Part shown: positions 1 to 47,880 of the stretch, in pieces | How the letters are laid out: each line of letters starts with the position of its first letter | How positions within the stretch are numbered: position 1 is the stretch's first letter | NCBI GenBank assembly: GCA_036172245.1 | Contig: JAYWIR010000030.1 | Span: 310,001-374,000, forward strand | Direction of reading: 5' to 3' | DNA length: 64,000 nucleotides | Origin: Raillietiella orientalis | Taxonomy: Eukaryota | The notes under the pieces: generated by a model | Told to the model about the DNA's origin: nothing | The model's database searches: none | Seen by the model: only the letters and a program-made list of their open reading frames with translations | Position numbers and translations under genes: made by a program

Positions 1-3000
1 AGTTGCTTGGAACTAGTTTTCAAAATTATGCTTCTGATACACATTAAGAGAACTTGCACGTATGCTTCTTTAAGAATTTGACCTTTATATTTGTGGAAAA
101 AATTTCGTCTTTACAAAATAACACAAATATCACGAACGCACATAATGTACATAATATACTACGCCGCATACCAACCTCTCCACATATGTATATACAGCTT
201 GAATACATGCATGCAATTCGAACGATTGTTTTTACATATCACTTCATAAATGTGCACAAAAGAGATTTATAATTACACACCCCTGAAGGGAAGTTAACAT
301 TTGATTTCGATTATTAAACGGACACAGAAGAATGGCTAGTGTTTTTATTATGCATATGCTTAATTAGCTACACAGTTACCAAAAGTTACTTAATCTGCCA
401 CAACGTCCTCTTTCCCTCATGAATTCGGGTTCCATACTAAACCGCTAAGCCTTCATAACGAAACATAATGACATTACTGACGTCTGATGCTAATTAGAAG
501 AAATGGAGAGTACCGGTGGTGCTGTTTTACTTGGTCCAAAATTCACATCGTACCGTAACCGCTTTCGAGACCGACGTTCAAATTTCGCAACGTACACTCC
601 GTGCATCGGTAACACTACCACGTTATGCTACCGAAGGTACAATAATTATAGTAGGGATAATCCAAACCGTGAAAAGGAGATCGTAGGGCTGTACAGATCA
701 CTTCAGAAACGGTGTCCAAAACTCTCCAGCAACTCATGAGAACCAAATCGATAACAAAATACACTCCGGAAGTTTTTTTTTTTTTTTTTTAACTACCAAA
801 AAATTTATCGATTTGCAGTGTTTTATGACATAGGGAAAAAAAAAAAATCATTAGAATACTGAACTGAATCCAATAAACTTTTCCTTGATTTCCAAATAAT
901 GAAACTGGACATGAGTTCCTGTTTTTCAAGTACACTGGTTTCTGAACACTACCACTAGCATGTGCACCAAGTAGTAAGTTTCCAAGGCATTTTTTAAATT
1001 CGAGTTTCTTATTCGTTTGTTTGTGGAGAGAGATCAAAAGGGAATCAAAACATAGCGACTGTTTCATATTTCTTAAGATCAATCTGGCCACCACAGAGCC
1101 TTTTGATTTAGAAATGTGTAAATGACACACAAACTGGTGCTTTCAGAAAAATTGACAAACAGTTTGAGAATTTTCTATAATGCCCTATTTTCTCTACAGA
1201 CTGTTGTCATAAAAGATAGTAGGGAATGTTGCATTATAAAAATGCTAACTTCTATAACATAGGTATATAAATTGAGGTGACTTCGTTTACATTACTTGAG
1301 AATGCCGTGTGTATTATGTGATGATAATTTTCCAACTTTAGAGCTTAGCAGTGACGAAAATTCAATACATATTATCTGACTATTAGACTGTACAGTGCTT
1401 TGTTTTGCATGGTTGAATAAAATCAGGCAGAATTGCATACTTATGGTGAAGTTATAGATAGGCAAAATTTTGACTCGAACACACATGTGCCTTTACAGAT
1501 AAATGAGCATTACTGAAAGCACAAAAACCCATAAAACAGGATCAAATTCATTTATCCTTATTTTCTATGGTAGACGTGTCTACTACTTAGCTTCCTCCTC
1601 CCTTCACCTTTTCTTACTGTGATGTTCCTTCCTAATGAGTCCCCGTTCTGAGTTGCTATTTGCAGCTTTTATTTTTGTCTTGGCTAGCAAATGACATTAT
1701 GCAGTTTATGCTTTTGACTGAATATCCATGTGAATGGTTTGTCTTCACGATCCTCGCTTTTCGGAATTCCTTTCGGAATTATAGCTTTGAAGATGTCTTA
1801 CTCGAATCATAAGATAGGCAGTTCTCTATATTAAATTCTAATATTCCAGTGACAAAGGATGTGGAAAGGTAAACGATGGAAAGATAAGTTTCTGAGTACC
1901 TTTCATGCAAATTCGGTCAAGACCAGCATCTGAAAATATCCAACTAAAAGAAAAGTTTTCGATTGAGAGTTTTGAGTAGCCCAAGTCCAACTGATAGTCC
2001 TGATAGTGGTAATCCTTACGGAGAGAAGGAACGATTCTTCACCTGAACACTTGGCTTCCCAACAAATCCTTCCCCCTGGTCTTTTGTTCCGAATGCTCAC
2101 CTCCTCACTCCTTTCTGCACATTCATGTTGACTTTTCACAGGGAGAAACACAACTTGTACAGCTGTTGTCTCGCATCTCACGACTCGTACTTTCCACGAA
2201 CTGCCGCACTTACCGTACGCAATGTGTCCGTACAACTGAATGCTTCCTTGGCATTTTTTTTTATATCCCGAAATTTATCATGAATCCCTTCCGAGAAACG
2301 GATTCCAGAAAAATCACATCAGTAGCTCCAAAGTACCAATGAAATTATGAAAACAATTATGAAAAACAATCCTTTAATTTTCTCCTTCTAAACGGAGGAC
2401 TCACAGAGGATTTAGGCAAAAGAATTGCTCAAATACGTAAACAAGCAACTGAAAGGAGGGGGGGGGAGAAATGATGATGATCACCATTATATGTTGTTTC
2501 CTAATGACTATTTGATGTAACAACAAAAATTTAATCACCTTACTGTGGAAGCCTATTGTACTCATTAAGGTGATAATTCTTAGCTTTCTTTTTGTGTCGA
2601 AAGTGTAGACCACTGTTATACGATTACTAATACTTTACATTTCGCTCGAAATTATTCGGTCACTTTTATGCTTGTGAGAGTTTTCTAAAAGCAAAGCCTT
2701 CCGACCGCATTCTCGAAGTTTCCTCCCCATTTAAGTTGACCAGGTGGAAGATATGTAACTTGGATAACCACATATGTTGGGTCTCAGCTGATCGAAAGGA
2801 AGCCGTATAAATATTGGAAACTATTCTTTAAAAAAAAAAAAAAAGAAAAGAGTAATCTCTGAAGGAAATCAAAAGAAAAAAAGAAAACTTGAAAAAACAT
2901 TAAATTTCAATTGAAAAAAAAAAAAAAAAACAAAAATACATTGCTGCATGCGACCGTTGCGAATCATTTCGAAAACGAAGGTCTTTCCAGCAGCCAAGCA

Positions 3001-3142
3001 CCTGTGTGCTGGAAGATTTCTCTTCATCGCTGCTGGGATTCACTATTCACCCTGCTATCATTTGATATTTCATTGGAAACCTATCGTGGGTTCCGGGGAC
3101 GGGAGTTTCTTCTCCGTCGGATAGGAGTTCGAACCGAGGTCC

Positions 3143-3865
3143 TTAGAATTTCTTGCGATTGGATGAGGTAATGTCTGTGACGGTCCATCTGTCTGTAGGC
3201 GCCTTTTGATAGTCGGGGTCCCAGTCGGAGAAGACGATGATGTGAGGTGCAGGAAAGTATCTGATGGATCCGTGATTCTTGGGATCAAATACGATGCCAT
3301 TTTTTAAACTTTCGATAAATCCGTACTGTACAAGTTCGCGGTTGTCGCGTGTGAGATCTTATAAGGATGATGCACTCACCGTTGTAGAGGTGAGTGGCCT
3401 TCATGCAACTTTGTAGGTAAATGGCTCCTCGTTCGAGGGATTAAAACCTGGCAAAGGTCGTCTTGCTTCAATTGCCTCGTTCATCCTTTATCCGATGAAT
3501 GTTTCGGTCACGTGAAGGTTTCTTGAGGGTGTCGAGGATGGTGAGCTGCCACATTCCCTGAGTCGTAGTCCGAGCATTCGGTTAAGATGATCTGTGTCTC
3601 GGTGTAAACGGAGACATTCTTGGATGAATGTGATACTTTTGCTGCAGAACTTTGCATGGTGGCTGAAGATGTATGGCGCATCCTTGACTGATTGTACGGG
3701 TTGGAGAATCTGGAACGCAAGGGAACATAGTGCGTGATAAAGTGAAAAAGTGGGAGCCCAGCGTGCGAGGATGTCCGTTTTCGTCACCAACTTTTGACCG
3801 AGTCGAGCCCTTCTAGAGTACTTGGTGGTGGCGAAGCACCGGTTGATGTAGGCAGCACACAGCAT
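3143..3865 (-). pseudogene. rep: Endogenous CRESS DNA virus Rep, decayed copy (EVE-A)
   Basis: Manual translation across frameshifts gives MLCAAYINRCFATTKYS (motif I region) ... ILQPVQSVKDAPYIFSHHAKFCSKSITFIQECLRL ... ILDTLKKPSRDRNIHRIKDERGN*SKTTFARF*SLERGAIYLQSC..HLYNGECIIL/DLTRDNRELVQYGFIESLKNGIVFDPKNHGSIRYFPAPHIIVFSDWDPDYQKAPTDRWTV. This is colinear with the Rep at 11.4-12.35 kb. Most of the endonuclease domain (motifs II and III) is deleted. Confidence 0.93.
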
Positions 3866-3892
3866 GGTGAGGGCACGTCTCGTATCTGAAAA

Positions 3893-3931
3893 GTGAGACT
3901 GCATATGCTGTCAGAGTGCTCTGTATATATA
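3893..3931 (-). promoter_or_regulatory. Rep core promoter of EVE-A (TATA box plus AGTCTCAC initiator-like motif)
   Basis: TATATATA at 3924-3931 and AGTCTCAC at 3900-3893; same spacing as in EVE-B. Confidence 0.6.
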
Positions 3932-4174
3932 GGCCGAGGAAGAAGGCCGTCTAGCAAATAGTGGCCCTTGACCTTGGTCTTGAAACTTGAGAAACTCTGA
4001 TAAGAGTAGGATTGTTTTCGCGTGGATCGTCACAAAGGGCTGAGTTATCTGTTTGCTGTCAATCAAAGCTGGTAATGGTAACTAATTGGAGCGCCGCGGG
4101 TTTCACAGTGCACATAAAGAGCGGGTCGTTGTGGGTAGTGTTAGTACGTCGTCAATCGGCGGAAGGGGAGGAGT

Positions 4175-5220
4175 GTGTTAGAGTTAGATTGTAGGAGGAA
4201 GAGAACTGCCAAGGATAAGGTGCGGAAGCGTCGTCCGTTGTTAAGGCGTGGTGTCTTCCGTCGTAGAACACGTATACCACGTGGACTCTTTAGACGTGGC
4301 TGGCGGCGTGGTAAGGGGAAAGAAATAGGAAAGCGCGTTTGGAGGAGAGCTTTCACTCGAAGAAGAGTTATTAGAGAGATTAGCACTGTCCAGTGCCATT
4401 TGTTTTCTTGTGCGGAAAATACGATGCGTCGTGGATGTTCGCAGAAGGAATGCAAACGTTTACGTTGTTGGATTTGCTGGAAAAGTGCAAATTTGAAGGA
4501 AATGTTGCAATTTTTCGAAGTGGTTCGTTTGATAGGGTAACGTTAGATAGGAGGGAGATGTTAGTTGTAAGGAGATGTGTCCTGGAACAGGTGAATTAAA
4601 ACGTGTTTCCTATATTATAGAGATCGTGTATTTCTTATGATAATCTAAAAATAAGGGAAGCTCAAATGATGACATGAGATTCAGAGGAACGAGAAAATAA
4701 TGATAGAAAAGATCGCAAGCTACAAAACCTGGAAGATGTGAAGTGATAGTCTGTAAGAAAGAGTAATCCATCTTTCACAAATCTTTGAGTAGTATGAGAA
4801 CTTTCCTGTTGATGAGGAATTCAGAAAATGGAAGAGTTTTCTAACATAGGAAGGTTTAAAACGCATCGATAATGATCTTTGATAACCATCAGTTACTGGG
4901 ATCGATCTTGTCGATCACCCATGTGTCAGTTGAGCAGCAACATCTATCAAGAAATTGTTTTTGAAAAGAACAAGGTGTGTTCGATGTCTAACCGAAAATC
5001 TACAGATTGGTCCCCAAGGAAAAATACCTGCCTAGAGCTTGTTCGTCTGGGATTCCAAGTTTGGCTGCTGAAACAACTCCAATTTTGTGAAAGAGATTCT
5101 CAAATCGCCGAACTGGAAAGCATCCAAGACATTCGAAAGCTCCGTTCCAGGCACCTCTATGCTCACCATCCAAGGAGAGAGAGCGTTGCTTTGAAATTCG
5201 ATGAGGTCCCACAGAAGTGA
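4175..5220 (+). pseudogene. cap: Putative CRESS virus capsid protein remnant, divergent from the Rep of EVE-A
   Basis: Very Arg-rich N-terminal arm (RRKRTAKDKVRKRRPLLRRGVFRRRTRIPRGLFRRGWRRG...RRAFTRRRV). After a frameshift comes TFTLLDLLE...FDRVTLDRREMLV, resembling the start of a circovirus-type jelly roll. Ambisense position relative to Rep. The segment past 4600 is uncertain. Confidence 0.6.
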
Positions 5221-5814
5221 AAGAGATGGAAGGGAAACTGCGAAACTCTGAGAGATAAGAAAGGGAAGTAGAGAGGAGAGTGAGTTTTTCTGTTGGCTCC
5301 AGGGAAAGAAGGAGAAATCCGAAATGACTTAGACGCAAAGTCGCTGTCCAGAAATGATTAACTCATCCGAGGTACTCTGTGACATCTCAAGAACAAAGTT
5401 GCGATTTCGACCAAGTGATTGAGAAGTGATTAGGGGATTTTTTTTTTTGCTACGTGAGGTCTTTCTTACTGCTTCTCGCGCAAGGACTGGCTGATTTGCT
5501 TTGGCAGCCGTGTTTAGAAAAAAAGGAAGAGAATCATGCATTGTGAGTATTTGATAAGCTCAAACGAGAATCAGGAGAGAAGAAAAAGAAGTAATGCCTC
5601 CGTGCTCGGTCCAGAAAAAGACTTGCTTGTGGTCAGGATCCGACTTGCTTACAAGGGTCGTTCCACCTTGCCATTCAACTACCTAACATGAATCCGACCA
5701 GGAGACTGATGGAAGCGCTGTAGGGGGTTTTGCTCCTGCACGTAGTCATGCAGTATCATCCCCTGGAAACTTAAACAATAGGTATGAAAAAAAAAAATGA
5801 CCGTAGCCACAGGA

Positions 5815-5902
5815 CCCGCGGTGGAGACCGTGTGGCTAAGGTCTCCGGGTGTGGTGCCATGCATTGCGGGTTCGAACACCCGTAAAGGACTAACGCTCTT
5901 TT
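5815..5902 (+). other. tRNA-like sequence (pseudo-tRNA or SINE head)
   Basis: D-arm/A-box-like GACCGTGTGGCTAAGGTC, B-box GGTTCGAAC and a downstream TTTT; no intact cloverleaf. Confidence 0.35.
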
Positions 5903-6238
5903 AGACACTCCGCAGACTCCAACGAATGGTGCGCTTTTTCTAATTTATGTAGTGGTTGTGGACAGAAATGCCAAACATTGCCGCTATGGAGGGCGGAAGT
6001 GATGAGAAGACTTCATCGCAAACCCCAATGCAGACGGAGGCTGTCGCTTCGAAGGATGGAAGTCCTGGGAATACAGGGATGTAGAGCCGTTTCCCAGGAA
6101 GAATAGGAGACCTGCGTGGCTCAAAATTACCAGCCTGCCTTGCTCTAGAAGGTAGGCCGATTAGACATAGCATCCTCTGAGCGTTCCTTCGCGGAGGGGT
6201 TGCGCAACGCGAAAGTCGAGAAGGGAGACCTCGATTTC

Positions 6239-6905
6239 CACCTGGATGCTCCGGGGCAGTAATAGTTTTGCAACAAAATTATTACAAAAAATTGTGACTG
6301 GACCACTGGTCTAGCCACGCCTAATTTAAAGGATACCTGCTGGGTCGCCGGTTCGCAGACCAGCATGGTCCACCACGGCGGCAGAGGGGAGGGAGCAAAC
6401 AGGAAGAAAAAAAAAATGAAAACAAAAAATAAAAATAAATACATTTTGGGGGGTTCGGGAAGGGATCACTGTTTCCTAGTGGCAGTCCGGTCCATCCTCT
6501 CTAGGATGTCGATAAGGTCTTACTGCATGTTGATTTCCAGGTGGGGCCATCGCGCTGCTATCCTAATGAATAGGACTGCAAAGTGTATAGCATCCCTGTC
6601 GCTGGATCCTCCCGTTATTTTGCTCCAAGCAGCGACGATCTCGTGTGGACAGCAAAGGACTTCCAGGGAGGCCATTGGCCTAAGGGTGTCGCGGACGAAG
6701 CGTCCCTGGAGTTGCCTTCGAGGGTTCCCAGGGCCGCGGCAAAGCATTCCTAGAGGGGCCAGAGGGCTACACAGTCCACTAATAGGTGGGGGCGATTCAA
6801 CTTTCTCAGGTTCCCGGCACCTGACACAGTTGGGATGTACACACTTCTGCGTCTAGTGATGACGGCGGGCGTTTGCACGGGAGACCCTAGCGCAGCACCA
6901 ACATC
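6239..6905 (-). mobile_element. L1/Tx1-like LINE, 3' fragment (zf-RVT C-terminus plus 3' UTR)
   Basis: HPNCVRCREPE zinc-finger region and RIAARWPHL C-terminus, followed by a GATCCCTTCCC / T-tract / structured 3' UTR shared with other copies. Confidence 0.85.
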
Positions 6906-6926: not shown

Positions 6927-9490
6927 TTGAAGGACTCTGTGGTGAACAGGAGAGAAGTCGTTGAGCTGACCTGCAAAGAGGCACCTCTTGCTCAGCGACT
7001 TTCTCAGCAACTCGAAGACTGGGATGAGATGAAGCGCTCGGTTCGAACGTTCTGCACGATCTTCCCTTTAGACCGCCTCCCGCTGGGTTTGGTGAGGGAA
7101 TGTTCAATGAGCACTCGTATCTTCAAGCTCGGTGCTCGCAGGGAAGGTCAGACGTTCGTCGTCTGGCCGAGATGAAAGCCAGGGCTGAGCGACAGTCCTG
7201 GCAGTCCGGGACGACCAGGGCCAGTTTGCTCGTCCCTGGCAGAAACACGATGCAGCGCGCTCCAACTTTACTCCTCCCTGTACGCGAGAGCACCACCGGA
7301 ACGCGTCTTTGAGCAGCGACTGCTATCTGAAAGCGTTCCCACGATCAGGAAAGAGTCTTAAACGGAAGAGATCATCTCCGCCATTGGCAAGCTCAAGATG
7401 TGGAAAGTACCAGGGGAGGATAGCCTGCCGGTTGAATTTTACTAGTGTTTCGCGGCAGAGCTGACCCACTGGTGCATCAGATTTGGAAGACAAACGAGGT
7501 GCCACGAGTACACCTCCTTCCAAAGGGAGGAAACCTCCGCAACATAAGCAACTGATGTCCGAATACCGTGATCAGCACGGATGTCAAGCTTCTTGCGAAT
7601 CCATGGACTGAGCGCTTGGGGCGGTTGGCGGCAACGTTTACCAATGCGGAGAAGACCCACGCTGTTCCCGGACGAAGCGTAAAAACGAACTTTTCCTGGT
7701 GAGCTCCTGGATTTAGTTGCAACAAAGAGTTGCTCCAGTCGGCCAAAGGAATCCTGAATTCCGAGATAACCAGGGATTGGGAGGCTAGTCGAGTCGGAGG
7801 CGTCGGGAGCCTTTGCGGTCGCAGTCGATTTGCAAAAGGCATTCGATTTTCACCCAAGCGGTCGGGGCGTTTATTAAAGAATAAACTTTTCATAAGTACT
7901 GTGGGCAAAATGCGTTCGACTGTGTATACCAGGAGCTCCTTTTGGAACTTCTGGAATGCATAGGATTCCCAGATGTTCTCCTCGACTACTTGCGCTCCTG
8001 ATGGCTCAACACGATGATTGTTTTTTTCAGAGGCCGACACGTGTACGGCGTACCGGTGCGGCGCGGGATTCGGCAGGGAGACAGCCTGAGCCCGTTGCTC
8101 TTCAGCATATACTTCGTGTTAGTATTGAGAGCATACAGGACAACTCTTGCTGCTATTCCCAGATCGTGGACCGTCACGCTTGCCATGTTAGGCTGTGACG
8201 ACGATCTCCTGCTCCTGCTACCCATATCAGTCCCGGAAGCATCCCTTGAGGAATTCCTCAATTATGTGCATGGCCATCGAGAGTTGTCCCGATGTGAGTA
8301 ACAACTCCGGAGAATGGTTGCCTTGGTCCAGGATAACAAGTGAATTTACCACTGCCCCGCCAACTGTAGTACCTGAAAACAGGAGACGATCCAGGCGTGG
8401 AAAGAAACGGCAGGAGTCCGGAGCAATCGCGATGTCTCAGATTCTCCGATTACTCTCGCTGCTCATTACAGGAAATCATGGACTGCTCAAGGAAGATCAC
8501 CTGGGCACTGAACACCCCACTCGCAGCCACACTCAATATCATCCAACAAAGTGGGCATAGAGATGGCCTTGCGAGATGGGAAGTATATCCTGGAATCTTT
8601 CAGGAAAAAAGTAGCACCTGGGATGCTGGACGGCGCGTCAGCTGGCTGAAGCATTTATTTTCGCCACCCTCTTCAGAAGAATCCTTCGCTGGGTGGAACT
8701 TCTGAACATTCCCTTCGAAGTCTCAGAAATACCCCCCGTGCTTGTGAACAGCTCCACGCTTTCCCCGAAGTGGCGGGGCTCGGCATTCCTTGCTGCACTG
8801 GACGATCCCATGCACTTGTCCCCCACCACTGGACGAGATGGACTGTATCTCCAGACTGTGGCAAGTGTGGGGAACGAGAAACCTTCCTATCCCTGCTGTT
8901 GTATTGCGTTGTTGCCCTCCTGAGTGTCCGGAAACGCTTTGCTGAGGCCCTCCCCCTCCCAATGGACTGCGGCAGAAAGATGTTGCAACTCCTCTTTGCG
9001 CGCGACTCCATGCCGCCTGCAGCTTCCCTTGTAGCTCTTCGCTGCTTTTGTGGGATCCTAGTGGCGAGCGGCCGCGCCGAAAGAGGCAATCGAATAATGA
9101 GGTAATCTAAGTTGTGTGCTCCTTTAACAGAAAGGTGACAAGATAACCACATCTCTGCCAAGAGAAGGAGAAAGTTATCAACATCCTCCAGAGGATGCTG
9201 AAAGATACAAGAAGAAATCCGAGATCCCTTCCCTTCTCCTCCCTTCCAGAATATTTTCAAACAGCTCTTTTGTGTTTCTTTTGTTTTTGTTTACACCTTC
9301 TTCCACTCCCCATGTGCGCATCTCATTCGAGAGTTGTTCACGAGAAGCAGCTCTTCCAAGGCATTTCCCTTCGTAGTGAGCATGTAAAGAAGGCATTACG
9401 AAGAAAGACATTTTTATATTTCATATGACTGTTTTTTTTGAATTTTATTTTTTTCACAACAAACACCCTGGCGTGACCGGGAGAAAATAA
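6927..9490 (+). mobile_element. L1/Tx1-like LINE ORF2, decayed (RT through 3' UTR)
   Basis: KVPGEDSLPVEFY, AVDLQKAFD, VRRGIRQGDSLSPLLF, CDDDLLLLL (YADD site), PDCGKCGERE; 3' hairpin near 9466-9482. Confidence 0.9.
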
Positions 9491-10030: not shown

Positions 10031-11395
10031 GTGGTCACTCCGGGACGTTTATTCCACAAAAAAAGAAACAAACCACAAACTTGGAGGGATATGTATCCCC
10101 TCAAGACACAAGAAATAGTCATGCAAAAAGTTAAACCGGGAAAACCATCGGCACGCAGGCCGGCTTCAAAAAAAGAAGAGAACAAAGGGAAAGGACACAA
10201 AATAGACAAAAAAAAACAAAGGAGGGTGGGGTCTTTGGTACTGAACGTTCCTCTTCTTCTAGAAGCGCCGCTTGACGATGGCGACTTTTCTGGGCAGATG
10301 AGACCCCCTTGCAGCTGCCTTCATAAGGTTGGCAGCTATCCTGGTGGCATCCTTTCGCTGCCAATTCCCTTCGAGCTTACGGCAGGCCATCACGATGGCG
10401 CGGATGCAACAGATTGTTGCGATCACAGCGCCCTTCTTCAGTCCGCCTTCGCTGAAGAAGCATTGCAGCAGGTCGATGGCAGTGTCCTGGAGACGATGAA
10501 GTGCCGAAGAAAGACTCCACCATAACACCTGGAGGTCAGTGCATTCCACAAGAAGGTGCGGAAGCGATTCCTTCGCCCCGCACCTGAGACAGTTCGGGGA
10601 GGCGACTCCCCTGGAAACCAGGTGTCTGAGCTGATTGCACTGGAAGCACCAGTGCAGGACTAGCAGAACATCCTGTTTCCAACGAAGCGGAAACACTGAG
10701 GTGTCCATGCAGAGAGAAGGGACCACGAGTTCTTCGGGGGATACACTAAGAAGTTCACTCCACCGAAGGAGTCCCTTTGCCCGGTGATGAGGAGTGGCAG
10801 CATCCACCAGCTCGCTCGTTTTGCAGCCACTCAGGAATTTTTCGACTCCTGCAATCCTTCAGGAGAACCTCCATCCTGCCGGTTGGCTACTGTTGTTGCT
10901 TTCCCTGAATGAAGACAGCTCTGCGGCCAGAGGTGAGACGGCTACCCGGGACCAAAGCGACTAGTCCTGCAGGATAACTCCTAGCAGTTTGCGTAGGAGA
11001 CCCTGTTGAGGTCGCAGTTGCTCTGGACGCACATCCAGAGCTTCCTGCCGGCAAGTATTCCAGTTATTGGGTCGGCAGGAAATCCAAGGATGGGCTAACA
11101 ACAACGAGGACAGATGCCTCAGAGGGTAGCCAAATCTAGTTCTTCGGCGTAGGTTGCGCGGCAGCAACGAAAGAAGACCTGCACTGCCGACACATCTCTG
11201 GAGGATGTGGCGAGCCGGAGCACACCAGTGAGAAGACCACAATTTCCCACTTAGGAAGAGAAGCTGGAACTGCACCGAGCAGCTCGCCCCATCTTTTTAA
11301 TTCTCTCGGCTGGACACTAGGGGTCGTAGCATCTGTCAGCTCTCCCATGGTCCAGCCGCTCATCATCTTCTCTCTGCCTGCGATACGGCATCCAA
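10031..11395 (-). mobile_element. L1/Tx1-like LINE C-terminal fragments plus 3' UTR
   Basis: DAATP..KGLLRWSELL..PEEL..LHWCFQCN..PNCLRCGAKESLPHLLVEC. A second fragment (GWTMGELTDATTP) abuts and truncates the viral Rep at about 11395. Confidence 0.88.
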
Positions 11396-11399
11396 TCTG

Positions 11400-12349
11400 T
11401 GAGACGATTAGCATCAGAACTGGATATATTTTTGACTGTCCATCTGTCGCTGGACATCTTGTCGTAGTTGGGCTCCCAGTTTGCAAAAACGATGATGTGT
11501 GGAGGCTGGAAGTATTTAATGCTACCTTGGTACTTCGAGTCGAAGATGATGCCGTTCTTGAGGGACTCGATAAACCCGTATTGGACTGATTCTTGGTTGT
11601 CGCGGGTGAAGTCGACCACGATGATTCTTTCACCGTTATAAATATGTGCTACGTCTGCATTTTTACATGAGTGCATGTAAATGGCATATTTTTTCAGATA
11701 AAGGAATTTGGCCATAGTTGTTTTTCCGGCTCCTCCTACTGGATCGTAGTACCAGTATATTTTACGGCTTTCAGGGTTGTGTCTGAAGATCTTTAAAATA
11801 TCCATCTGCCAACTTTTGAGTTGCATTTTTGCGAGTGGGTTAGGATGGGCTTGGCTTCGTGTTAATCTGAAGCATTCTTTAACAAAGTTAATATTTTTAC
11901 TATAAAATTTCGTGTGATTCTTAAGTATGAATTGTTCATCGGCGCCATCTTGAATGAGTGCAGCGGAGTATCTAGTGGAGAAATAGTGTTTGATCTTGTT
12001 GTCATTGGTTTTCGGTACTTACTAATTGTTCGTAGGTTTGAGGCTCGTTATGTCCGTAGGTCCAAGCGTTCTTATCCTGCTTGGTGCAGTACCTCACGTT
12101 GCTTCGTGGTGAGCCTCTCGCCTTTTCCAAGTGGCACTTCTGGAAGGGCTTGCGTCGTAGTCCGGGCATGGTGCGTGGTTCGCGTAGTTGGATGTATCCT
12201 TGGAGATGTGGCGTTCCTGTTTCGGCTGTTTCTTTTCCAATACAGGCGGAGCAGCAGTTTTGACGGCACCAGTTTTTAATTTCTTGGAAGTCTTCATCGC
12301 TGTAATTACAAAAGGTTATACACCAGTTGAAGAATAAGGAGTACGGCAT
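11400..12349 (-). pseudogene. rep: Endogenous CRESS DNA virus Rep (HUH endonuclease plus SF3 helicase), nearly intact (EVE-B)
   Basis: RCR motif I (WCITFCNY), II (TPHLQG), III (YCTK); Walker A (GGAGKT), Walker B (IVVDFTR), motif C (IIVFAN), Arg finger (DRW). Putative intron at 11972-12022, one 4-nt insertion at 11956-11959, and the extreme C-terminus replaced by LINE sequence. Confidence 0.97.
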
Positions 12350-12375
12350 GTTGGCACTTGGTAATTCTGTATATG

Positions 12376-12414
12376 GTGAGACTTGGCTTTCGGCTCTTGA
12401 CGGTGGTTTATATA
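12376..12414 (-). promoter_or_regulatory. Rep core promoter of EVE-B (TATATAAA plus AGTCTCAC)
   Basis: TATATAAA at 12414-12407, AGTCTCAC at 12383-12376, ATG at 12349. Confidence 0.65.
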
Positions 12415-12430
12415 CTGCCCAACTGTGCAG

Positions 12431-12449
12431 TGGTAAGTCGTATTACCCA
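12431..12449 (+). other. Candidate rolling-circle origin nonanucleotide TCGTATTAC
   Basis: 12438-12446 is one mismatch from TAGTATTAC and lies just upstream of the Rep promoter. Only a short TGG/CCA stem remains. Confidence 0.5.
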
Positions 12450-12699: not shown

Positions 12700-13315
12700 A
12701 GAGTAAATCCTGCGTGTGCCAGGTGTGGGGAGCGGGAGTCCCTCCCCCACTCCTAGTTGACTGCCCTGCCCTCCGGATTCTTTAAGATCGTCTTGGAACG
12801 GCCCTTGGGATACCGGCTAGTGGCAACCCCAGAGACGTTTACAGTCTTTTCTTCGTGCGGGACGCCCTGAGTCCAGCCACAGCCTTGGCAGCACTTTGCT
12901 GCCTCCGGGGCATCGTGGCGGCATGAAGTGATGCCCAGGACGAAGATGTTGATTCCAACGAGATGGAAGTCATCCCGTATGCAGTTCGCTTCATGCAGAG
13001 AGCTACCGGATGGCGCCAGCCGGGAAGAATGAAGGAGGACCTCGAGGGCATCCTGCAAAGGATGGGCCCTCCCCGTAGTGGAATGTGATCCCTTCCCGGC
13101 CTTCCAAACTCTTTTTTGTTTTCTTTTTCTCAATTTTATTTTTACTTTTGTTTTCTCCCCCATCCCCTTCCACTGCCGAGGAGAGTCACACCGGGCTGCG
13201 TCCCGGTGTCCCGGCAGGTCCGGTGTTGCGTGGCCGTTAGTGAAGCCTTGTACCATGTTTTTTTGTATTGACCAATGCGAAGTTTTAAATAAACGTCCCG
13301 GAGTATCCGGGTGTC
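12700..13315 (+). mobile_element. L1/Tx1-like LINE 3' end
   Basis: NPACARCGERESLPH, C-terminal helix region, structured 3' UTR, AATAAACGTCCCGGAGTATCCGGG terminus. Confidence 0.9.
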
Positions 13316-21465: not shown

Positions 21466-23660
21466 TCATCCGGGTGAGCCGGGGCTTTTATTATTAAAAT
21501 TTTTTACAATAAAAAAATTCTATAATAAAGTCTTCTTTTTGTTGTCACTGTGTTGTTTGTTTTTCAGCCGGAACACATGTTCCGACTGTCCTGGGGGCAC
21601 TTGTCCTTACCGACCCTCAGGCAGGTAAGGTCCTCTACACGGGCGCAGGGGCGGGAAAAACAAAAAATAAACAAAAAAAACAAAAACGCCTGGGGGGGAC
21701 AATGTTTTTGGGAGGGGAGGAGAGGGAGGGGATTACGGTACGCCGTGGGGAGGTCTCTGCATCCGGTTTCGGATGCGAACAAGTGCCGGCAAATGTTTTC
21801 GGAGTCGGCGCCAACGGGAAGCCTTCTTCAAGGAGATGGCAGCCCAGTGGATGGCATTCCGACTGCTGTGACCTCTCCTTGATGCGGTCCACTTATCCAG
21901 GATTCCGTGTATGCAACAGAGCACTGCTACACACCCGGAGGCTAGCATGGCGTCCCTCATCAGGAGGCGTCGAAAAATGTTCTTGGGATCGCCCACCGGA
22001 ATGTTTAGGATCGAGGAGAGTCGATCCCACATGAGGGGTAGGGCAATGCATATTACATATTAAGTGGGGGAAGGTCTCCCTTTCCCTGCACTCCGCGCAA
22101 TTGGCATCCACACTCCCCGATGTCCAGTGAGACAGGAGTGCTCTGCTTAAAAGTCCCCAATGGAGCAGAAGCAACGCCGTCTCCTGCCACTGCAGGGGGA
22201 GGGTGCCGTTGTCCCAAGACGCTGGGGGCCACTTCACCTCCTCCAGAGGCATGTCGAGCAGCTCTCCCCAGCACACAAATCCATAAGGCGGGACACTCGG
22301 GGTCGCAGCGTCCGTGCTCCCAATGCCTGTAACAGTTTTTTCCTGCCTCCGATGAGGCAGAACACTTCCCATAATACCTATTCCTGGCTGTCCCTAGCGT
22401 GCCGTAGGGAGGGCAGCACGGAATCAAGGGGGGTAAACGAAGTCCACAAAAGTTTTCGTGGGTTCGAAACGATCTCCTGTAGGGGCTGTCCAGCGTGCCT
22501 GTCTCTACGGAGGCAGGAGTAGTCCGAGTCGCTGGAGGCGTTGATCTTAGCCCACGCGGAAACTGACTCCTGTAGCCGGGTAGTCCAGTTCGCGGGGACG
22601 CAGGAGATCCACGTATTCGCACTCACCAGGGCAACCGCATCAAGCAGCTGAAAACCACAATGGTTCAGACTGCGGGCGTCGGCCTCAAGGATCGATGTGA
22701 ATCCATTTCAGCTGGTCTCTCCGCTGGCGAGCAGGAGTGAAGGAACGAACCATGGCGTCGTCCATAATATCGCCGCAAGGGCAAGATTGCGGATTCATAG
22801 CTGCCGCTCCATGCGCTCCAGCGTCAAGAGGCCTAGTTCCCCGTCCCTGTGTGGGGCGCACAAGTCTTTGAGTCGGACGCGGGACATCCGTGTACCCCAC
22901 AGGGCTTTTCTCAGGAGGTCCTTTGTCCTAGTCTCTATTTGAGTTGGAACAGGGCAAACAAAAAGTAGGATGCGAAAGCGTTCCACACCGCGGTCCGTTC
23001 CGGCAAGTAAACCTTGCCGTCACGGAACGGACCGATCTCCAGCTCCACCTTTTGGAGACGATCGGACCAGGCTTCTGCAGCGCAGAAGTCTCCAACGGAA
23101 CGCCAAGGTACTTTAATTACCCGCGCGTGGGGATCCCCGAGCGGATCCAGTCCGGCCGTCCAGCCCACGTTGTGTCAACTTGGAGGATTGATGACTTTGC
23201 CCCGTTAACCTCCAGTTCCGTCCCTTGGCTGAGCAGTTCGAAGAACTCCTCGAGTGCAGAAGCCGAAGTGGGTCCGGGGAGCAGCAGCAGAAGATATAGG
23301 CATAGGCGTCTGCATAGGCCGACACGGCATGCATGCCGGGACATGAGCTCGGCAGGGTTGCCAGAGTCTCTCTGTATGCTCTCAGCACCAATTCAAAATA
23401 GATGCTAAAGAGCAGGGGGTTGAGGCTGTCACCCTGCCTTATGCCGCGTCGAACCGGCACGCCGTACACGTGCCGGCCGCTGAAAAAAATGTTTATATAC
23501 GCGAAGCGCCAGCAGGAGCGCAGATAACCCAGGAACACGGTCCGAAAATCCATGCTTTCCAGGGGCTCCAGAAGGAGTGCCTTGTTGACGAAATCGAAAG
23601 CTTTACGCAAATCGACTGCGACTTGCTCCAGACGCGTGCGATCCTTCTCGGTCAATCTCC
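21466..23660 (-). mobile_element. L1/Tx1-like LINE ORF2 (RT to 3' end), decayed
   Basis: AVDLRKAFDFV, RRGIRQGDSLNPLLF, AYADAY, CAPHRDGELGL, ANCAECRERETFPH; terminal hairpin at about 21468-21492. Confidence 0.92.
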
Positions 23661-23699
23661 TGTATTGTTCCAATCTTAGTGTATGCACAGGCGACGAGT

Positions 23700-24872
23700 G
23701 TACAGGACTGCTGCTGGTTGGCCTCACTTGGAAGAAGAAACGAAGGAAGAGATCGTGGGCATCCAGCGCCGGCTTTGAAATGACGGAACGGCAGACACCG
23801 GTGACCCTTGTCCTTTGTCTCCCTTTATTTTTTTTATTTTTTGTCTCATTCCCCAGTCTTTTTCGCTCTGTAACTTTCCCGGTTTTCTTTGTTTTGACCC
23901 CAGTAGATAGAGAGGGAACTCAAAGATCCCTGCCCCAACCCTCCGCATTTCTTTTTGTTGTTGTTGTTGTTTCTCCTCCCCTCCTTCATTCCAGACTTTT
24001 AAATATCCCGACCTGCGTGTCGGTGGCCCCCTCCCGGTCAACTTTTTGCCTTCGGTTGGAAACGGCGTTCCCAACTGGTTTGTATGTATAAAATAAACGC
24101 CCGGCGTGACCAGGAGAAACACCTCATCGTCCGCCTGCTGTCGGGAGACAAGTAGGCACAGGTGCATCGCCCCCGAAGAACTAGTGATCCCTCCCTCACG
24201 TGTGAACACCTCAGTGTTCCCCCTTATCTGAAAACAGGATGTGATCTTGATCTTGCTGGTGCATTGTGGCTTCCATTGCAACCAGCGCACGAACCTTGTT
24301 TCCAGGGAGTTCCCGAACTGTGGACGGAGCAGCGGAAACGCTCCCGCACCTGCCCTTCGACTGCGGTGTCCTCCAAGGACTGTGGCGGAGGCTGGCATCA
24401 GCATCTCTTGCACCAGGGGGACACCGCAAGGATGTTGATGCGCCGCTTCTTCACGCCAGACGGCCTGTCGTCAGCCGCGGTTGTCGCAACGGTCTGTCGC
24501 ATCCGCGCCATCGACAAGGCCCACCGACAGCTGGAGTCGCAGGCGATTCGTCGAGAGGCCACCGCAATCGCCGACGACAACATGACGACGGCTGCGAGGT
24601 GAACTCACCTTCCAGAAGACGTGAGGAAGGAGATCTCCGGCATCCAACGCCGGTTCTAAAACGAAAGAACGACCGAAGCCAAGGAGGACCCTGTCCCCCT
24701 CATATGTTTATTCATATTTTTTTATATATATTTATTTATCCCTCCTCTTCCGGACTGTCGGTTTTACCGGCAGCGTGTCGGGGAGCCCTCCCTTCGATCT
24801 TCTGTACCCTTTGTCTGGGAACTTTTGTTCTCGGATGGTTTTTAAATAAACGCTCCTGCGCAACCGGGTGAA
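23700..24872 (+). mobile_element. Two tandem LINE 3' ends
   Basis: Termini AATAAACGCCCGGCGTGACCAGG (about 24092) and AATAAACGCTCCTGCGCAACCGGG (about 24845); zf-RVT segment between them. Confidence 0.85.
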
Positions 24873-25924: not shown

Positions 25925-26848
25925 CAACAGGTTGATGGGCCACATCAAGATCACCACAAAGAATGACAGGTTTGGAAGAATCCAATTTCTGAAGATACGT
26001 TAGGAAGCTGTCATTCCATTTCAGTCGATAATCTAGGTTTTTCAGGCCCCGTCCGGCATTGGGGACATCTACCTAGCATGAGTACATTTTCTAAAGCATC
26101 TAATTACATTACATGTATTGACTAGAAAGAATGGTGGAAATTCTGCAGTGATTACTCTTCCTTCTTTGTCAAACTCTGGAATACCTATTCCATAGCTGAT
26201 GGACAGTGGCTCTGATTTGCTCAGGATGGCCACGCCAGCGTATCCCTGAGTAGCTCCTGATGACCAGTGACAATGGTAGTCTTCGATTCCTGTAAGATCA
26301 GGAATCTGGCTTTGGGAACATTTCGTTTCTTGCAGGCAGATGACATCAGGGAGCAACTGCTTCAGTGAAACAATCCCGTTTTTCTATACGGGGCTCTGCG
26401 TAATCTGTAACACGGTGGTTCTTGTTACCTTTGCACATGCTCTCAATTCGTCCACATTCCAGGACAAGATGGTTTTTACATCTGCCTTGCCGTCGGATGC
26501 AATATCTGGATGCGGTGAAACCGGTTCGTTCGCCTTGGCGGATTTATTCTTTTTCTTCGGGGCGCCTTTGTTCGCAGCATTCTTTCAAAAGGGGGTCAAA
26601 ATTCAAATTACGAATTCACTCGCAGTCGCGTTTTACGAATTCAAATTCAAAACTCTCAACTTCCGGTGAACCGAGCAACCACATGCGCGCAGCTTCCGGC
26701 AGCGGGGATGGAGGCACTCTTTTGATCCCCGTCTTTTCCCCGCGAGTATCCGTGGATTGCTCGACGCGGTGAGGATGCTGGATGCCTGCAACCGGGAAAA
26801 AGATCTTTCCATACTTACGGACAACTTTGCCTTTTTGGCCGGCGGCAT
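25925..26848 (-). pseudogene. APEX1: AP endonuclease 1 (ExoIII family), intron-containing and 3'-truncated copy
   Basis: Spliced translation: MPPAKKAK... SWNVDELRACAK|KNGIVSLKQLLPDVICLQETKC...GYAGVAILSK..P...FDKEGRVITAEF..FFLVNT|YVPNAGRGL...KPVILCGDLDVAH. One intron is 26384-26428 (45 nt). No WRLDY/SDHCP exon was found downstream. Confidence 0.85.
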
Positions 26849-45060: not shown

Positions 45061-47880
45061 GGCGCAAGTAACGGTGACGAACCGTAGGGTTCCTCCCCAC
45101 AAAATCCAGGTGGGTGGAGCACTTGCTCGTTCGCCGTAGCCTTTGCGTGTCCGCGGGACTACAGCGAACACGCGTCGGATGCGGCGAAGAGGAGCATCAT
45201 CTCTGGCAGTTTCGTCAACCGACTGCCGCAGATATGTGCGATATGTCTGCCGGCCTCGAAGAGTCCGCCGCTCGCGAAGAATCGCCACAGCACGTCACAG
45301 GAGGTGTTTCCCTGGTAAGAGAGTACTGCAGCCGAACTCCTGTGTTCGTGGAGAGTACCGTAGTTGAAAAGCAGGTGAGAGAACGACACCCATACCGAGC
45401 AGAGTTCGGGAATGCAACTCCCAGAAACGAGGTTTGGACGCGGATTGCACTGGAGCTCCCAGTGCAGAAGCAGCAGCACAGCCTGCCTCCATCTTAAATT
45501 AAACACGGATATGGGATCAAACATAAGAGAGGGATCACGAATTTGTCGCTATTGCAAAGGGCCTGGACAGCTAAGGTAGTGTTCCTGGAGATGGAAAGAA
45601 AAAAAGGCAGACCACCAAGAAGCGGAAGTCGCGTGCTGCAAATAAGCACGCAGCATCTGAGGCTAGGAAGTCTCTCGCGATCTCTCCCGCAGCAACGCAG
45701 CCTTGAACGAACGCGCCCAAGGCCGCGAAAACCCGCGGAACCGCTCCAACAGGTGAACTGTTTTCCTTTTCCCACCTTCGCCACTGCTGCTCGCAAGAGA
45801 CAGAGCAAGGAGGGTATCTGAACACCTGTCATCGGGTGGTGAGGGGGTGTAGCCCTCGATGGGAACCCCTTTCCATGGAGCCCTAGCAACAAAAGGCGGC
45901 AGCGAAGCGAACCACCAGCCCAGAGGTTCGCTGCCGATCATGATCTCCTTCATCAGGATCACACTAAGATGACCGCGTCTCCAACAGCCAAACCAGGAAC
46001 TTGTCTACATCCTGGAAGAGACGATAAGGAAATCTCAGGAGAAACTGCCCCCGCGCTTCCTTTTTATTCAGAAGTTATACATATATTTTGTTAGTTTGGT
46101 TCTGTTTTTATTCTGTCCGTTTACCCTTACTCTTAAAACTCTCCAAAGCAGATCTGTCCTGGTGAGCTGCTGTTGAATGGAAATGTCTCCCCGACTTGCT
46201 TAGACACAGTGAGATTGGAAACAGCTTAAAGGAAAGAAGAATTTTGAATGCTTATTTATTGCAAGTGTTCCGGTAATCCAGTCGAAAACTGCTTCTGCTG
46301 CTGTTGATGTGATTCTTGTGAGTGTAGTCGTGGATTGCGGTGTCTACGTGGCCAAAATGCCAGTAGACACCGCTAGGGTGAACCAGGAAGAATGAACGGC
46401 AGCCTTTCTCACTGGAAAAATGCAGGAGGATCCCACAGAATCGCCTTCACCGACCGGGACTGTGGTGGCGTGGAGCGAAGTCAAGGGAGGAAGAAACGAG
46501 AGGGATGCCATCCAGTTCTTATTTTGCTTTTTGTGGATAGCAGTCAGATGGCCCCACCTGGGCAGTATACGGACGACCTAGCTGGCATCCTGGAAAGGAT
46601 GCAGACTTCTTCCGGTAGTGATCCCTTCCCGGTCCTCCAGAGTGTTCTTATTTATTTTTATTTTTGTTTTTCCCCATCCCCCTCTGCTGTCGGGGTGAGC
46701 CCAGCCGGTCTGCGTACCGATGACCCGGCATGTCGATTACAGAATCGGTTGCGGGGGCTACATGTCCCACCACGAAAGTTGTAGGTTTATTGGTTTTAAT
46801 AAACGTCCCGGAGTGACCGAGTGACAACCTCGACCTAGCGATCAGAAAGCCAGGTGGCTGAGATAGAGGCACGGTCAGCCCAGCCTGAGACCAAAGCCTA
46901 CATGGCCCACGGTTACAAGCCGACCCCTGCACTCTAAGGTTTTTCACTCGATTTTTCCGGGTCATTTATTATTAAATATGATTAAATATGATAAAAATAC
47001 GATAATAGAAAAATACAATCAGGTGATAGAAAATGTCACTGAACACTGTACCATGTGCACTGAACCTGCCAATTCCCTTGCGCAGACCAGCAAGGTCCAC
47101 TTCGAAACAAAAATAAAACAAACAGAAAAAGGAGGGAAAGTGTTCTCGGGAAAGGAAGAGAGGGGTAGGGAAATCAAGAAAGGATCAATGCTCGCTGCGA
47201 GGTGTCCTCTGCATGCTGTCCACGATGCTGACAAGTCCTCTACGTAAGTCGTCCAGGTAATGCCATCTAGTGGGGGTACTAAGAAAAATTCTCGTACAGC
47301 GGGTTGGCGTCCCTTCCATTGCGGCCTCTTCTTCCTTCGTTTCAAGTCGCCACCACCCCGCGACAACAGTAGAGGACTGCAAGAGACGTGGCCGGCGGCA
47401 TTGAGGTACCACGCATGAATAGGCGCCTAAAAATGTCTCTGGGACCGCCTACGGGGACTTCAAGGGTCGTTACTAGGCGATCCCAAAGGACCAAGGGACA
47501 TTCCAGTCTAACAGCAGGTGCGTAAGGGTTTCTCTTTGTCCACTGTCTCACTTAGCGTCCACGCCCCTCGAGTCCAGTGGTTGAGACGCATTTTACGTAG
47601 GATTCCCAAATGAAACACCAGCAACGCCAACTCCTGCCATTGAGGAGGAGGGTGCCACTGTTCCAGCAAGCTGGGACCACCCTCAACTGACTGGACTTTC
47701 CAATTCTAATATCAGGTATTCGTTTGCACACCAATTCAAGAAACTGGACGCAGCCTCAGCTGGCACCTGGGAGCGTGCAAGATTTTCTGTGGGGATCAGG
47801 TCGTGGTGCTGACTTGCACGGAAGCAAGTCTTGCTCCTCGCACGCTGAAATACCGTCTTGCGATAGGGATCTTTTCTCAC
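45060..47880. mobile_element. LINE C-terminal and 3' fragments, including a tail-to-tail pair
   Basis: Minus strand 45060-46010 (LHWELQCN), plus-strand 3' end to about 46825, minus-strand 3' end from about 46940. Confidence 0.85.

Follow-up and report, generated by a model that had tools for sequence, protein, structure and literature searches.

How much of a CRESS-DNA virus genome survives at this locus? The preliminary description proposed a near-complete genome, with a Rep hidden on the minus strand at 3143–3865 and, divergently oriented on the plus strand, an Arg-rich Cap up to 5220. We searched for these genes, and for an origin between them, in a 64-kb window (the whole stretch of DNA that was analysed, to which all coordinates refer). 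The locus is best read as an ordinary, heavily decayed endogenous CRESS element, made up of a Rep helicase pseudogene and a probable remnant of the Cap arm. The features considered are the following:

3149..3738, minus strand: Rep remnant (linker and SF3 helicase), a pseudogene, recognised by frameshift-aware alignment, tblastn and HMM pieces
3146..3358, minus strand: C-terminal end of Rep’s SF3 helicase half, 71 codons open without interruption up to the stop at 3143–3145
3739..4144, no strand: 406 nt in which the HUH endonuclease and, in the 5’ intergenic region, the origin would be looked for, with nothing recognisable
4145..4540, plus strand: Arg-rich ORF of 131 codons, richest at 4187–4366, a candidate remnant of the Cap N-terminal arm by composition and position
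4541..4900, plus strand: AT-rich stretch (GC 0.34–0.39) with stops in all plus frames, within the G>C skew domain, delimited by frames and composition
4876..5220, plus strand: ORF of 114 codons, counted in Cap by the preliminary description, with only sub-threshold Pfam noise
3050..4900, no strand: compositional domain of ~1.8 kb with G>C on the plus strand, the likely extent of foreign DNA by GC skew
11320..12442, minus strand: Rep2, a much better kept Rep with an HUH (HUQ-type) endonuclease and an SF3 helicase, recognised by Pfam, PDB and HMM matches

A Rep helicase pseudogene on the minus strand

The better-kept Rep2 served as the reference for the Rep remnant. It matches the Pfam families Viral_Rep (E 6e-13) and RNA_helicase (E 2.6e-4), has HMM scores of 83 and 206 bits, and is matched by Rep nuclease domains in the PDB at E 1e-12. 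Two of these entries, 2hw0 and 7lar (labelled ‘Replicase’ and ‘Rep’), we take to be from porcine circovirus 2; the helicase half has no PDB sequence match at E ≤ 1e-3. Repeats flank Rep2 at 10371–10935 and 12715–13227, the latter starting after just ~365 nt of upstream sequence, and the Rep2 flank has no translated similarity to 3739–6300. Rep2 itself has one frame change, near 12002–12018. We considered an intron here and rejected it, as the 51-nt GTAAGT...TAG stretch (12022–11972) fails to restore the frame; we regard it as a genuine frameshift or a mistake in the assembly.

With the 233-aa ORF at 11320–12018 (minus strand) as query, tblastn found Rep-like sequence on the minus strand at 3697–3146 (E 4.2e-34, 121 bits), and the alignment contains the 16-residue match to the Rep at 11.4–12.3 kb that the preliminary description had quoted. 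A frameshift-aware alignment recovered the remnant over 3738–3149, equivalent to Rep2 residues 9–205 (score 436), with three frame changes (near 3710, 3580 and 3360) and two in-frame stops (at 3470–3468, within the Walker A site, and at 3443–3441). The hidden Rep is thus present over a shorter stretch than had been proposed, the match ending at 3738 and not at 3865.

HMM matches to the remnant fall into two pieces in different frames, of 73.6 and 31.3 bits. The stronger lies in the block at 3146–3358 (profile positions 224–295), which is 45–47% identical to the nearest metagenomic Reps. All nine metagenomic CRESS Reps matched 3146–3364 (E 3e-16 to 8e-6), while 3551–3360, in another frame, was matched by two of the nine. 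At the nucleotide level, likeness to Rep2 is limited to 209 nt (3178–3386, 69% identity). Because the 71-aa block is 67% identical to Rep2, against 45–50% for the best metagenomic or IMG/VR relatives, we place the remnant and Rep2 in one virus lineage. An SF3 helicase domain homologous to those of CRESS Reps is present over 3149–3738 as a pseudogene, and that the locus holds an endogenous CRESS-type Rep remnant is certain; as judged from these alignments, the recognisable part is the SF3 helicase half only.

The remnant is contiguous with host or repeat DNA and carries frameshifts and stops, as endogenous viral elements do, and LINE RT fragments and repeats flank the element on both sides within the 64-kb window. 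An APEX1-like exon at 26 kb has zebrafish APEX1 as its best match, and on this indirect ground an animal host is plausible. The locus resembles the endogenous circoviral (CVe) and other CRESS elements of animal genomes in having a Rep pseudogene with frameshifts and stops among host repeats. According to one published account, some invertebrates carry several copies that stem from repeated invasions by similar viruses (PMC3198968); here, likewise, two diverged Reps lie 8 kb apart.

Related virus genomes and their layout

The relatives used for comparison were IMG/VR contigs L001–L085, metagenome contigs L086–L091 and proteins P0001–P0009. Single-protein queries found no relatives among viral contigs, and alignment queries were needed. 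The helicase half of the relatives’ Reps is 31–50% identical, with none above 50%, and the nearest relatives lie on contigs of 2–5 kb, mostly of a virus-like 2–3.3 kb. Of the contigs on which a second ORF lies apart from a complete Rep, 51 of 67 are ambisense, and in 44 of the 67, the commonest layout, the two genes diverge from 5’ ends separated by less than 600 nt. Among the first 60 residues encoded by the second ORF, 29 of 89 contigs have at least 10 Arg and two have at least 20. The locus is like these uncultured CRESS-DNA virus genomes in its divergent ambisense arrangement and in the Arg-rich start of its second ORF, which many of them share, but the copy here is integrated and broken, and none of their second ORFs matches it (see below).

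A likeness to Circoviridae (Circovirus and Cyclovirus) can also be drawn, from the Y1 HUQ endonuclease and SF3 helicase of Rep2, the ambisense two-gene plan and the basic Cap arm. The locus differs from that family in having neither a TAGTATTAC-type loop nor a Pfam capsid match, and the likeness is one of layout and domains, not a family assignment.

The gap between the two candidate genes

The 406-nt gap would fit ~118 codons of a Rep N-terminal domain and a short intergenic region. An HUH endonuclease domain was not matched in 3739–4200 by tblastn, HMMs or Pfam, with scores at noise level. Profile alignment with frameshifts gave 12.3 bits for the gap versus 11.8 ± 1.7 for shuffles (34 of 100 were as good), the score observed in a spaced three-motif test was reached by 75 of 300 shuffles, and in a comparison with 70 Rep N-termini 23 of 40 shuffles equalled the observed score. 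Peptides resembling motif II (near 3944) and motif III (near 3850) looked plausibly spaced by eye, and were rejected when shuffle tests put them at noise level. As a positive control, the same methods gave 83–95 bits for the Rep2 endonuclease and found all three of its motifs. The helicase half of the remnant retains 105 of Rep2’s 206 profile bits, so that under equal decay ~40 bits would be expected from the endonuclease domain. Among intact relatives with a comparable helicase score, an N-domain match to Rep2 is detectable by BLAST in 59 of 67 and absent in the other 8.

The stem-loop of CRESS origins carries a conserved nonanucleotide, TAGTATTAC. No copy with up to one mismatch lies within 3000–5300 (the window holds 6, versus 3.75 expected), and no inverted repeat with a loop was found in the gap region. 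The DNA fold of 4050–4200 contains no hairpin like that of an origin and is no better than chance (z +0.86), being equalled by 157 of 200 shuffles. If the gap once held a full endonuclease domain, only ~50–120 nt would be left as 5’ intergenic sequence, a shortness shared by 10 of 44 relatives.

An Arg-rich frame in the position of a capsid gene

On the strand opposite Rep, 406 nt from the last Rep-like residue, an open frame starts at 4145. As the preliminary description had noticed, this divergent frame opens with an Arg-rich stretch: the 60 codons from 4187 include 23 Arg (30 Arg plus Lys), more than in any other of the window’s 578 stop-free ORFs (minimum length 60 aa). None of 2000 dinucleotide shuffles reached 23 Arg (11.3 ± 1.6, maximum 18), and the richness is specific to this frame. 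The count lies inside the range of the relatives’ second ORFs (maximum 24), as in a basic N-terminal arm. The Arg codons used are CGT (9), AGA (6), AGG (4), CGG (2), CGC (1) and CGA (1). The ORF has no Met before codon 94 and no start codon in its own frame ahead of the Arg-rich stretch, and the ATG upstream at 4075 is in another frame; neither a homologue nor a Pfam family was found for it. From its composition and position, the ORF is most likely what remains of the capsid gene’s basic N-terminal arm.

The window contains only one other Arg-rich stretch comparable to 4187–4366, at 45140–45367. We considered it as a second Cap and rejected it, as it overlaps a GC-rich LINE-like repeat, off-frame.

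Beyond the candidate arm, nothing resembling a capsid was detected. Pfam searches of all plus frames of 4100–6300 gave no family, capsid families included, and a frame-2 read-through of 4384–5217 had no homologue among 1.84 billion proteins. The 213 second ORFs from 91 related virus contigs gave no tblastn match to 4145–5300 (an earlier set of 136 ORFs likewise), and in frameshift-aware alignment their maximum of 63 was at shuffle level, being reached by 1 of 12 shuffles. AlphaFold single-sequence models had pLDDT values of 53 for the Arg-rich ORF and 36 for the second model, too low for fold comparison. tblastx of 3739–6300 and 2000–3145 against the rest of the window gave nothing at E ≤ 0.2, and Rfam and tandem-repeat searches gave no matches. 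A capsid-like profile or fold, the lack of which would by the preliminary description’s own terms count against it, was not obtained for the plus-strand peptide by Pfam, homologue searches or these low-confidence models. The missing match is nonetheless weak evidence, because CRESS capsids diverge fast and the candidate here is broken.

The plus strand has no open frame over 4600–4875, where stops occur in all three, and 4541–4900 could be the decayed body of Cap. The best Pfam signal of the ORF at 4876–5220 is DUF4667, below threshold at 17.4 bits versus a cut-off of 27; nothing ties this ORF to the viral element, and it may lie outside, since the G>C skew domain stops near 4900. These stops, the end of the skew domain and the missing capsid likeness throughout 4145–5220 speak against a Cap reaching 5220, as had been proposed.

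A compositional domain spanning both candidates

Among 622 such intervals (mean GC skew 0.018, sd 0.067), the 1800 nt from 3101 have the highest value, 0.285. Read on the minus strand, the skew is nearly the same in the gap (−0.234) and in the Rep remnant (−0.230). That of Rep2 has the same sign (−0.129) and lies at the bottom of the range for 70 related rep genes. The uniform skew over ~3100–4900 points to a single insertion of up to about one genome length (1.8 kb). The rep strand of the copy at this locus is unusually C-rich compared with the metagenomic relatives.

Origin of the element and competing explanations

We lean, by a little, towards a dead endogenous CRESS element, inserted with rep and, in ambisense orientation beyond the 5’ intergenic region, cap or at least its start, and decayed since. 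In this reading the source was a CRESS-DNA virus (Cressdnaviricota, with a circovirus-like layout), the target was a repeat-rich part of a eukaryotic, probably animal, chromosome, and the decay was neutral. Of rep, the 3’ two-thirds (linker and SF3 helicase) survive as a pseudogene at 3149–3738 on the minus strand. The Arg-rich frame, which points away from rep and lies ~50–120 nt past the expected rep start, would be the Cap arm, and the inserted piece would be ambisense, as is usual among these viruses. Up to ~1.8 kb may have entered in a single stretch, the circle having been opened between the genes’ 3’ ends. No part of the element is functional today, because a stop lies in the Walker A site, neither the endonuclease nor the origin hairpin can be recognised, and the body of cap is unreadable.

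The proposal of a near-complete genome did not hold up, with the endonuclease half of Rep undetectable and no capsid profile, homologue or fold. In its full form, a collinear unit-length genome with a complete rep, its endonuclease decayed past recognition, and a complete cap reaching 5220, we regard it as doubtful. The ~1.8-kb skew domain does fit a small CRESS genome, the gap has room for the N-terminal codons and a short intergenic region, and 8 of 67 intact relatives likewise give no BLAST-detectable N-domain match to Rep2; but neither endonuclease nor capsid was detected, and the skew domain is over near 4900 and not 5220, with no open plus frame in 4600–4875. It is similarly only a tentative idea that 3100–4900 is an approximately unit-length fossil of an unclassified HUQ-type (Arfiviricetes-like) virus, with rep, the 5’ intergenic region and cap in their original order, and that the same lineage entered its animal host’s genome at least twice.

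An opposite simplification is that only the helicase half of a 5’-truncated rep was integrated and everything to the right of ~3740 is unrelated, either a host or transposon remnant or chance. This, too, we think rather unlikely, although the endonuclease domain was undetectable in every test while being detectable in 59 of 67 comparable intact Reps, and Pfam, the relatives’ 213 ORFs and the protein database offer no evidence of a capsid. Rep-only elements are also the rule among endogenous circoviral elements, with 302 Rep versus 3 capsid sequences in Liu et al., 2011 (PMC3198968), and Dennis et al., 2018 (PMC6069186) report no new cap-derived elements. In contrast to these mostly Rep-only elements, the locus may retain a candidate cap start beside rep: the most Arg-rich frame of 64 kb lies within ~450 nt of the Rep remnant in a cap-like place and orientation, the window’s extreme G>C skew runs unbroken from Rep to 4900, and no repeat, Pfam family or homologue claims 3739–4900. 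Elements with both rep and cap are already known and not new here; according to Dennis et al., 2019 (PMC6372831), cyprinid fish have complete circovirus genomes in tandem, and both genes are present in four cases among vertebrates.

The triplet periodicity of 4187–4366 might instead come from a Ser/Thr/Pro-rich frame on the minus strand, or from some other viral ORF. The reverse complements of CGT, AGA and AGG are ACG, TCT and CCT, and the minus strand, which is that of Rep, is open here too (ORFs 4141–4542 and 4241–4459). These frames, however, belong to no family (only MATH_2 at 17 bits versus a cut-off of 32), long leaders rich in Ser, Thr and Pro are no feature of the 69 aligned related Reps, and many second ORFs of the relatives begin with an Arg-rich arm, which makes this explanation improbable. 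Least probable of all, and scarcely credible to us, is a Rep-encoding transposon (Helitron or Replitron) in place of a virus fossil. It would suit two diverged Rep copies within 9 kb of a repeat-rich region. Yet Helitrons have a Y2 Rep fused to an SF1B helicase and Replitrons a Y1 Rep without a helicase, as outlined in PMC10288648, and the helicase here is of the CRESS SF3 type, fused in Rep2 to a Y1 HUQ endonuclease. Moreover, the nearest relatives lie on contigs that are mostly virus-sized, and neither terminal repeats nor nucleotide-level copies were found within the window.

Implications

The practical value of the locus is modest, because the part attributed to cap has eroded too far for a capsid sequence or a classification to be derived from it, and Rep2 is the better object for follow-up. 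Were the locus a unit-length fossil, Cap, Rep and host would be joined for a lineage with no nearer known relatives than anonymous metagenomic contigs, at most 50% identical, and the uniform C depletion on the cap-sense strand would record the packaged strand. If the Arg-rich ORF is truly cap, integration here took in more than rep, and cap-derived fossils are rare outside vertebrates. For CRESS viruses, which are mostly known through metagenomes, endogenous elements tie the group to hosts and set minimum ages; together, this locus and Rep2 represent repeated germ-line invasion by one lineage.

Rep remnant and its better-kept relative

The window contains an endogenous CRESS element with a pseudogene of the Rep helicase half, read here against a second, better-preserved Rep (Rep2).

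3149-3738, minus strand: Rep remnant, SF3 helicase half
11320-12442, minus strand: Rep2, a well-kept CRESS-type Rep

Rep2 consists of two long ORFs of 146 and 233 codons, separated by one frame change near 12002-12018. ORF 12002-12442 matched Pfam Viral_Rep (E 6e-13) and ORF 11317-12018 matched RNA_helicase (E 2.6e-4). Solved Rep nuclease domains in the PDB matched the endonuclease part (best E 1e-12), while a PDB sequence search with the helicase half returned nothing at E <= 1e-3. All three endonuclease motifs are present, motif II in its HUQ form. A 51-nt GTAAGT...TAG stretch (12022-11972) looks splice-like but was rejected as an intron explaining the frame change, since it leaves the frame unrestored. 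Repeats lie on either side of Rep2 (10371-10935 and 12715-13227). A circovirus-type nonanucleotide with one mismatch occurs at 12438-12446 on the plus strand, opposite to Rep2 and about 90 nt upstream of its start; such matches are at chance level (6 in the window versus 3.75 expected), and this one has no clear flanking stem.

Within the window, the 233-aa helicase-half ORF of Rep2 matched 3697-3146 on the minus strand by tblastn (E 4.2e-34, 121 bits), and a protein-to-DNA alignment tolerant of frame changes paired 3738-3149 with residues 9-205 of that ORF (score 436). A 16-residue Rep match quoted in the preliminary description falls within the tblastn alignment; the Rep that it placed at 3143-3865 is real, but its match stops at 3738. 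Read frame by frame, the remnant shifts at about 3710, 3580 and 3360. Premature in-frame stops occur at 3470-3468, within the Walker A site, and at 3441-3443; the final 71 codons of the remnant (3358-3146) are unbroken and 67% identical to Rep2. Independent support came from nine metagenomic Reps (P0001-P0009) that Rep2 retrieved with E values from 6e-33 to 7e-16; their contigs measure 2-5 kb. All nine matched 3146-3364, and two of them also matched 3551-3360 in a different frame. A Rep profile of 69 sequences scored 73.6 and 31.3 bits on these same two pieces. Nucleotide-level likeness to Rep2 is confined to 3178-3386 and reaches only 69% over 209 nt, so the two are old relatives rather than recent duplicates.

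Composition and extent of the insert

GC content climbs near 2975-3050 from 0.23-0.38 to about 0.49, and from there to about 4900 the plus strand has more G than C. Across 622 windows of 1800 nt, GC skew peaks in the one that begins at 3101 (0.285; mean 0.018, sd 0.067). Minus-strand skew is -0.230 in the Rep remnant and -0.234 in the 406 nt beyond it (3739-4144); Rep2 has the same sign (-0.129), and both Reps fall towards the bottom of the range for 70 related rep genes (mean +0.066, minimum -0.234). This shared and extreme skew argues, as an inference from composition rather than proof, that 3100-4900 is a single foreign piece, roughly one CRESS genome in length. The end of the skew domain near 4900 also suggests, on composition, that ORF 4876-5220, previously counted as part of a capsid gene, lies outside it.

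Search for the endonuclease domain

The HUH endonuclease domain occupies about 118 codons in Rep2 and would be expected at about 3739-4095 in the remnant. There, none of the nine metagenomic Reps matched by tblastn, compared with seven of nine for the same domain of Rep2; two Rep HMMs were silent, and Pfam searches of single ORFs and of frames read through stops found nothing. Frameshift-aware profile alignment of the region gave 12.3 bits against 11.8 +/- 1.7 for shuffles (34 of 100 equal; Rep2 control, 95 bits). Motifs I-III at correct spacing in any frames scored 16.6 against 14.6 +/- 2.9 (75/300 shuffles equal; Rep2, 52.9), and alignment of 70 Rep N-termini was equalled by 23 of 40 shuffles. 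By these shuffle-controlled tests, motif-like peptides picked by eye are chance.

The helicase half of the remnant retains 105 of the 206 profile bits of Rep2, and equal decay would therefore leave about 40 of the 83 bits of the endonuclease domain. The calibration set was 67 intact relatives with helicase halves scoring 90-150 bits against Rep2. Their N-terminal domain matched that of Rep2 in 52 at E <= 1e-3 and in 59 at E <= 10, with no match in eight, which makes its absence here unusual, not decisive. Either the domain never integrated, or it was lost, or it was of a divergent type that is now unreadable.

An arginine-rich frame as a probable capsid remnant

4145-4540, plus strand: Arg-rich ORF, 23 Arg (30 Arg + Lys) in 60 codons from 4187

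This ORF ranks first for Arg among the 578 stop-free ORFs in the window that span 60 codons or more; the values that follow are 21 and 16. The runner-up, 45140-45367 on the plus strand (21 Arg in 60 codons), overlaps a GC-rich LINE-like repeat in another frame and probably arises as an artefact of reading GC-rich DNA out of frame. When the 180 nt were shuffled with dinucleotide composition preserved, no more than 18 Arg appeared in any of six frames (mean 11.3; sd 1.6), and none of 2000 shuffles reached 23, so the richness is not due to base composition. Together with the mixed Arg codons (CGT 9, AGA 6, AGG 4, CGG 2, CGC 1, CGA 1), this indicates that 4187-4366 once encoded a basic peptide or, which is unlikely, an S/T/P-rich one on the opposite strand.

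The location of the ORF fits a cap gene. Of the related virus contigs, 67 carry a full Rep together with a separate second ORF; 51 of these have an ambisense arrangement, and in 44 the divergent 5' ends are separated by less than 600 nt (median 218 nt). In 10 of these 44 the ends are no more than 120 nt apart, as they would be here had a complete N-terminal domain once lain in the gap. The first 60 residues of the second ORF contain at least 10 Arg in 29 of 89 related contigs and at least 20 in two. Counting against cap, the first 93 codons of the frame lack Met, and the closest upstream ATG (4075) is out of frame.

Searches for the capsid itself were negative. No Pfam family was found in the plus frames of 4100-6300 read through stops, and second ORFs of relatives gave no tblastn match to the region (0/136 from 80 contigs, then 0/213 from 91) and aligned at shuffle level when frameshifts were allowed (observed maximum 63, reached by 1 of 12 shuffles). 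A word-indexed protein search at near or longer lengths found no homologue of the 131-aa ORF, and exhaustive phmmer with the frame-2 read-through of 4384-5217 found none among 1,835,955,588 proteins at E <= 1e-3. AlphaFold models made without an alignment were too poor for a fold search, both for the 131-aa ORF (pLDDT 53, pTM 0.29, helical) and for the read-through (pLDDT 35.8). No plus-strand frame is open across 4600-4875, no origin-like hairpin or nonanucleotide is left between rep and the Arg-rich ORF, and the Rep2 upstream flank, which is short and ended by the repeat at 12715, has no translated likeness to 3739-6300. On balance we favor, by a modest margin over doubt, the reading of the Arg-rich frame as probably the stump of cap. 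With endonuclease domain and capsid undetected by every search, the near-complete genome proposed in the preliminary description has no support.

Genomic surroundings

From about 3 to 59 kb the window forms an island laden with repeats and richer in GC than the AT-rich DNA on either side. GC is 0.34-0.38 in the flanks (1-3000 and 59000-64000) and 0.45-0.60 in the 56-kb island, which is crowded with repeat fragments and holds both Rep fossils. The island may be a graveyard of repeats or a small-RNA cluster. CpG is undepleted around the locus (observed/expected about 1). Several repeat families and LINE reverse-transcriptase (RT) fragments lie inside the window, the latter all on the same strand as both Reps.

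7477-8188, minus strand: LINE-type RT fragment, sharing nucleotide repeats with the following two
23113-23919, minus strand: LINE-type RT fragment (RVT_1, E 7e-10)
56454-57644, minus strand: LINE-type RT fragment (RVT_1, E 8e-14)
26072-26584, minus strand: APEX1/exonuclease III-like coding pieces, two ORFs with a stop between

The stop between the APEX1-like ORFs is possibly a short intron. Exon 26072-26383 (minus strand) scored higher with zebrafish APEX1 (94.6 bits) than with human APE1 (79), plant (64) or bacterial ExoIII (at most 58) proteins, and zebrafish APEX1 was the top PDB match of the pieces (E 3e-26); they are a host gene or pseudogene within the island. This ranking makes an animal host plausible.

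Comparison with known elements

According to PMC10288648, the helicase of Helitrons is of the SF1B type, Replitrons lack one, and HUQ is associated with Arfiviricetes. The present lineage has instead a CRESS SF3 helicase, with a HUQ motif II in Rep2, and a transposon of either kind fails as an explanation. Rep-like matches at 34% identity also occur on metagenome contigs of 9.8 kb (L090, 677-859) and 2.9 kb (L091, 1359-1559); the former exceeds CRESS genome size and might carry a further copy integrated in some organism.

Endogenous CRESS and circovirus elements are already well described. In 35 eukaryotes, Liu et al. (PMC3198968) counted 302 Rep-like against 3 capsid-like sequences, and Dennis et al. 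(PMC6069186) describe new invertebrate elements as all rep-derived; both agree with the earlier remark that such elements are mostly Rep-only; Liu et al. also inferred repeated invasions for some invertebrates. As Dennis et al. describe both genes in four vertebrate cases, among them complete genomes arrayed in tandem in cyprinid fish (PMC6372831), fossils with rep and cap are not a new kind. The present locus is a real but ordinary example, and Rep2 would make a better target than the 3-5 kb locus for work on age, phylogeny and expression.
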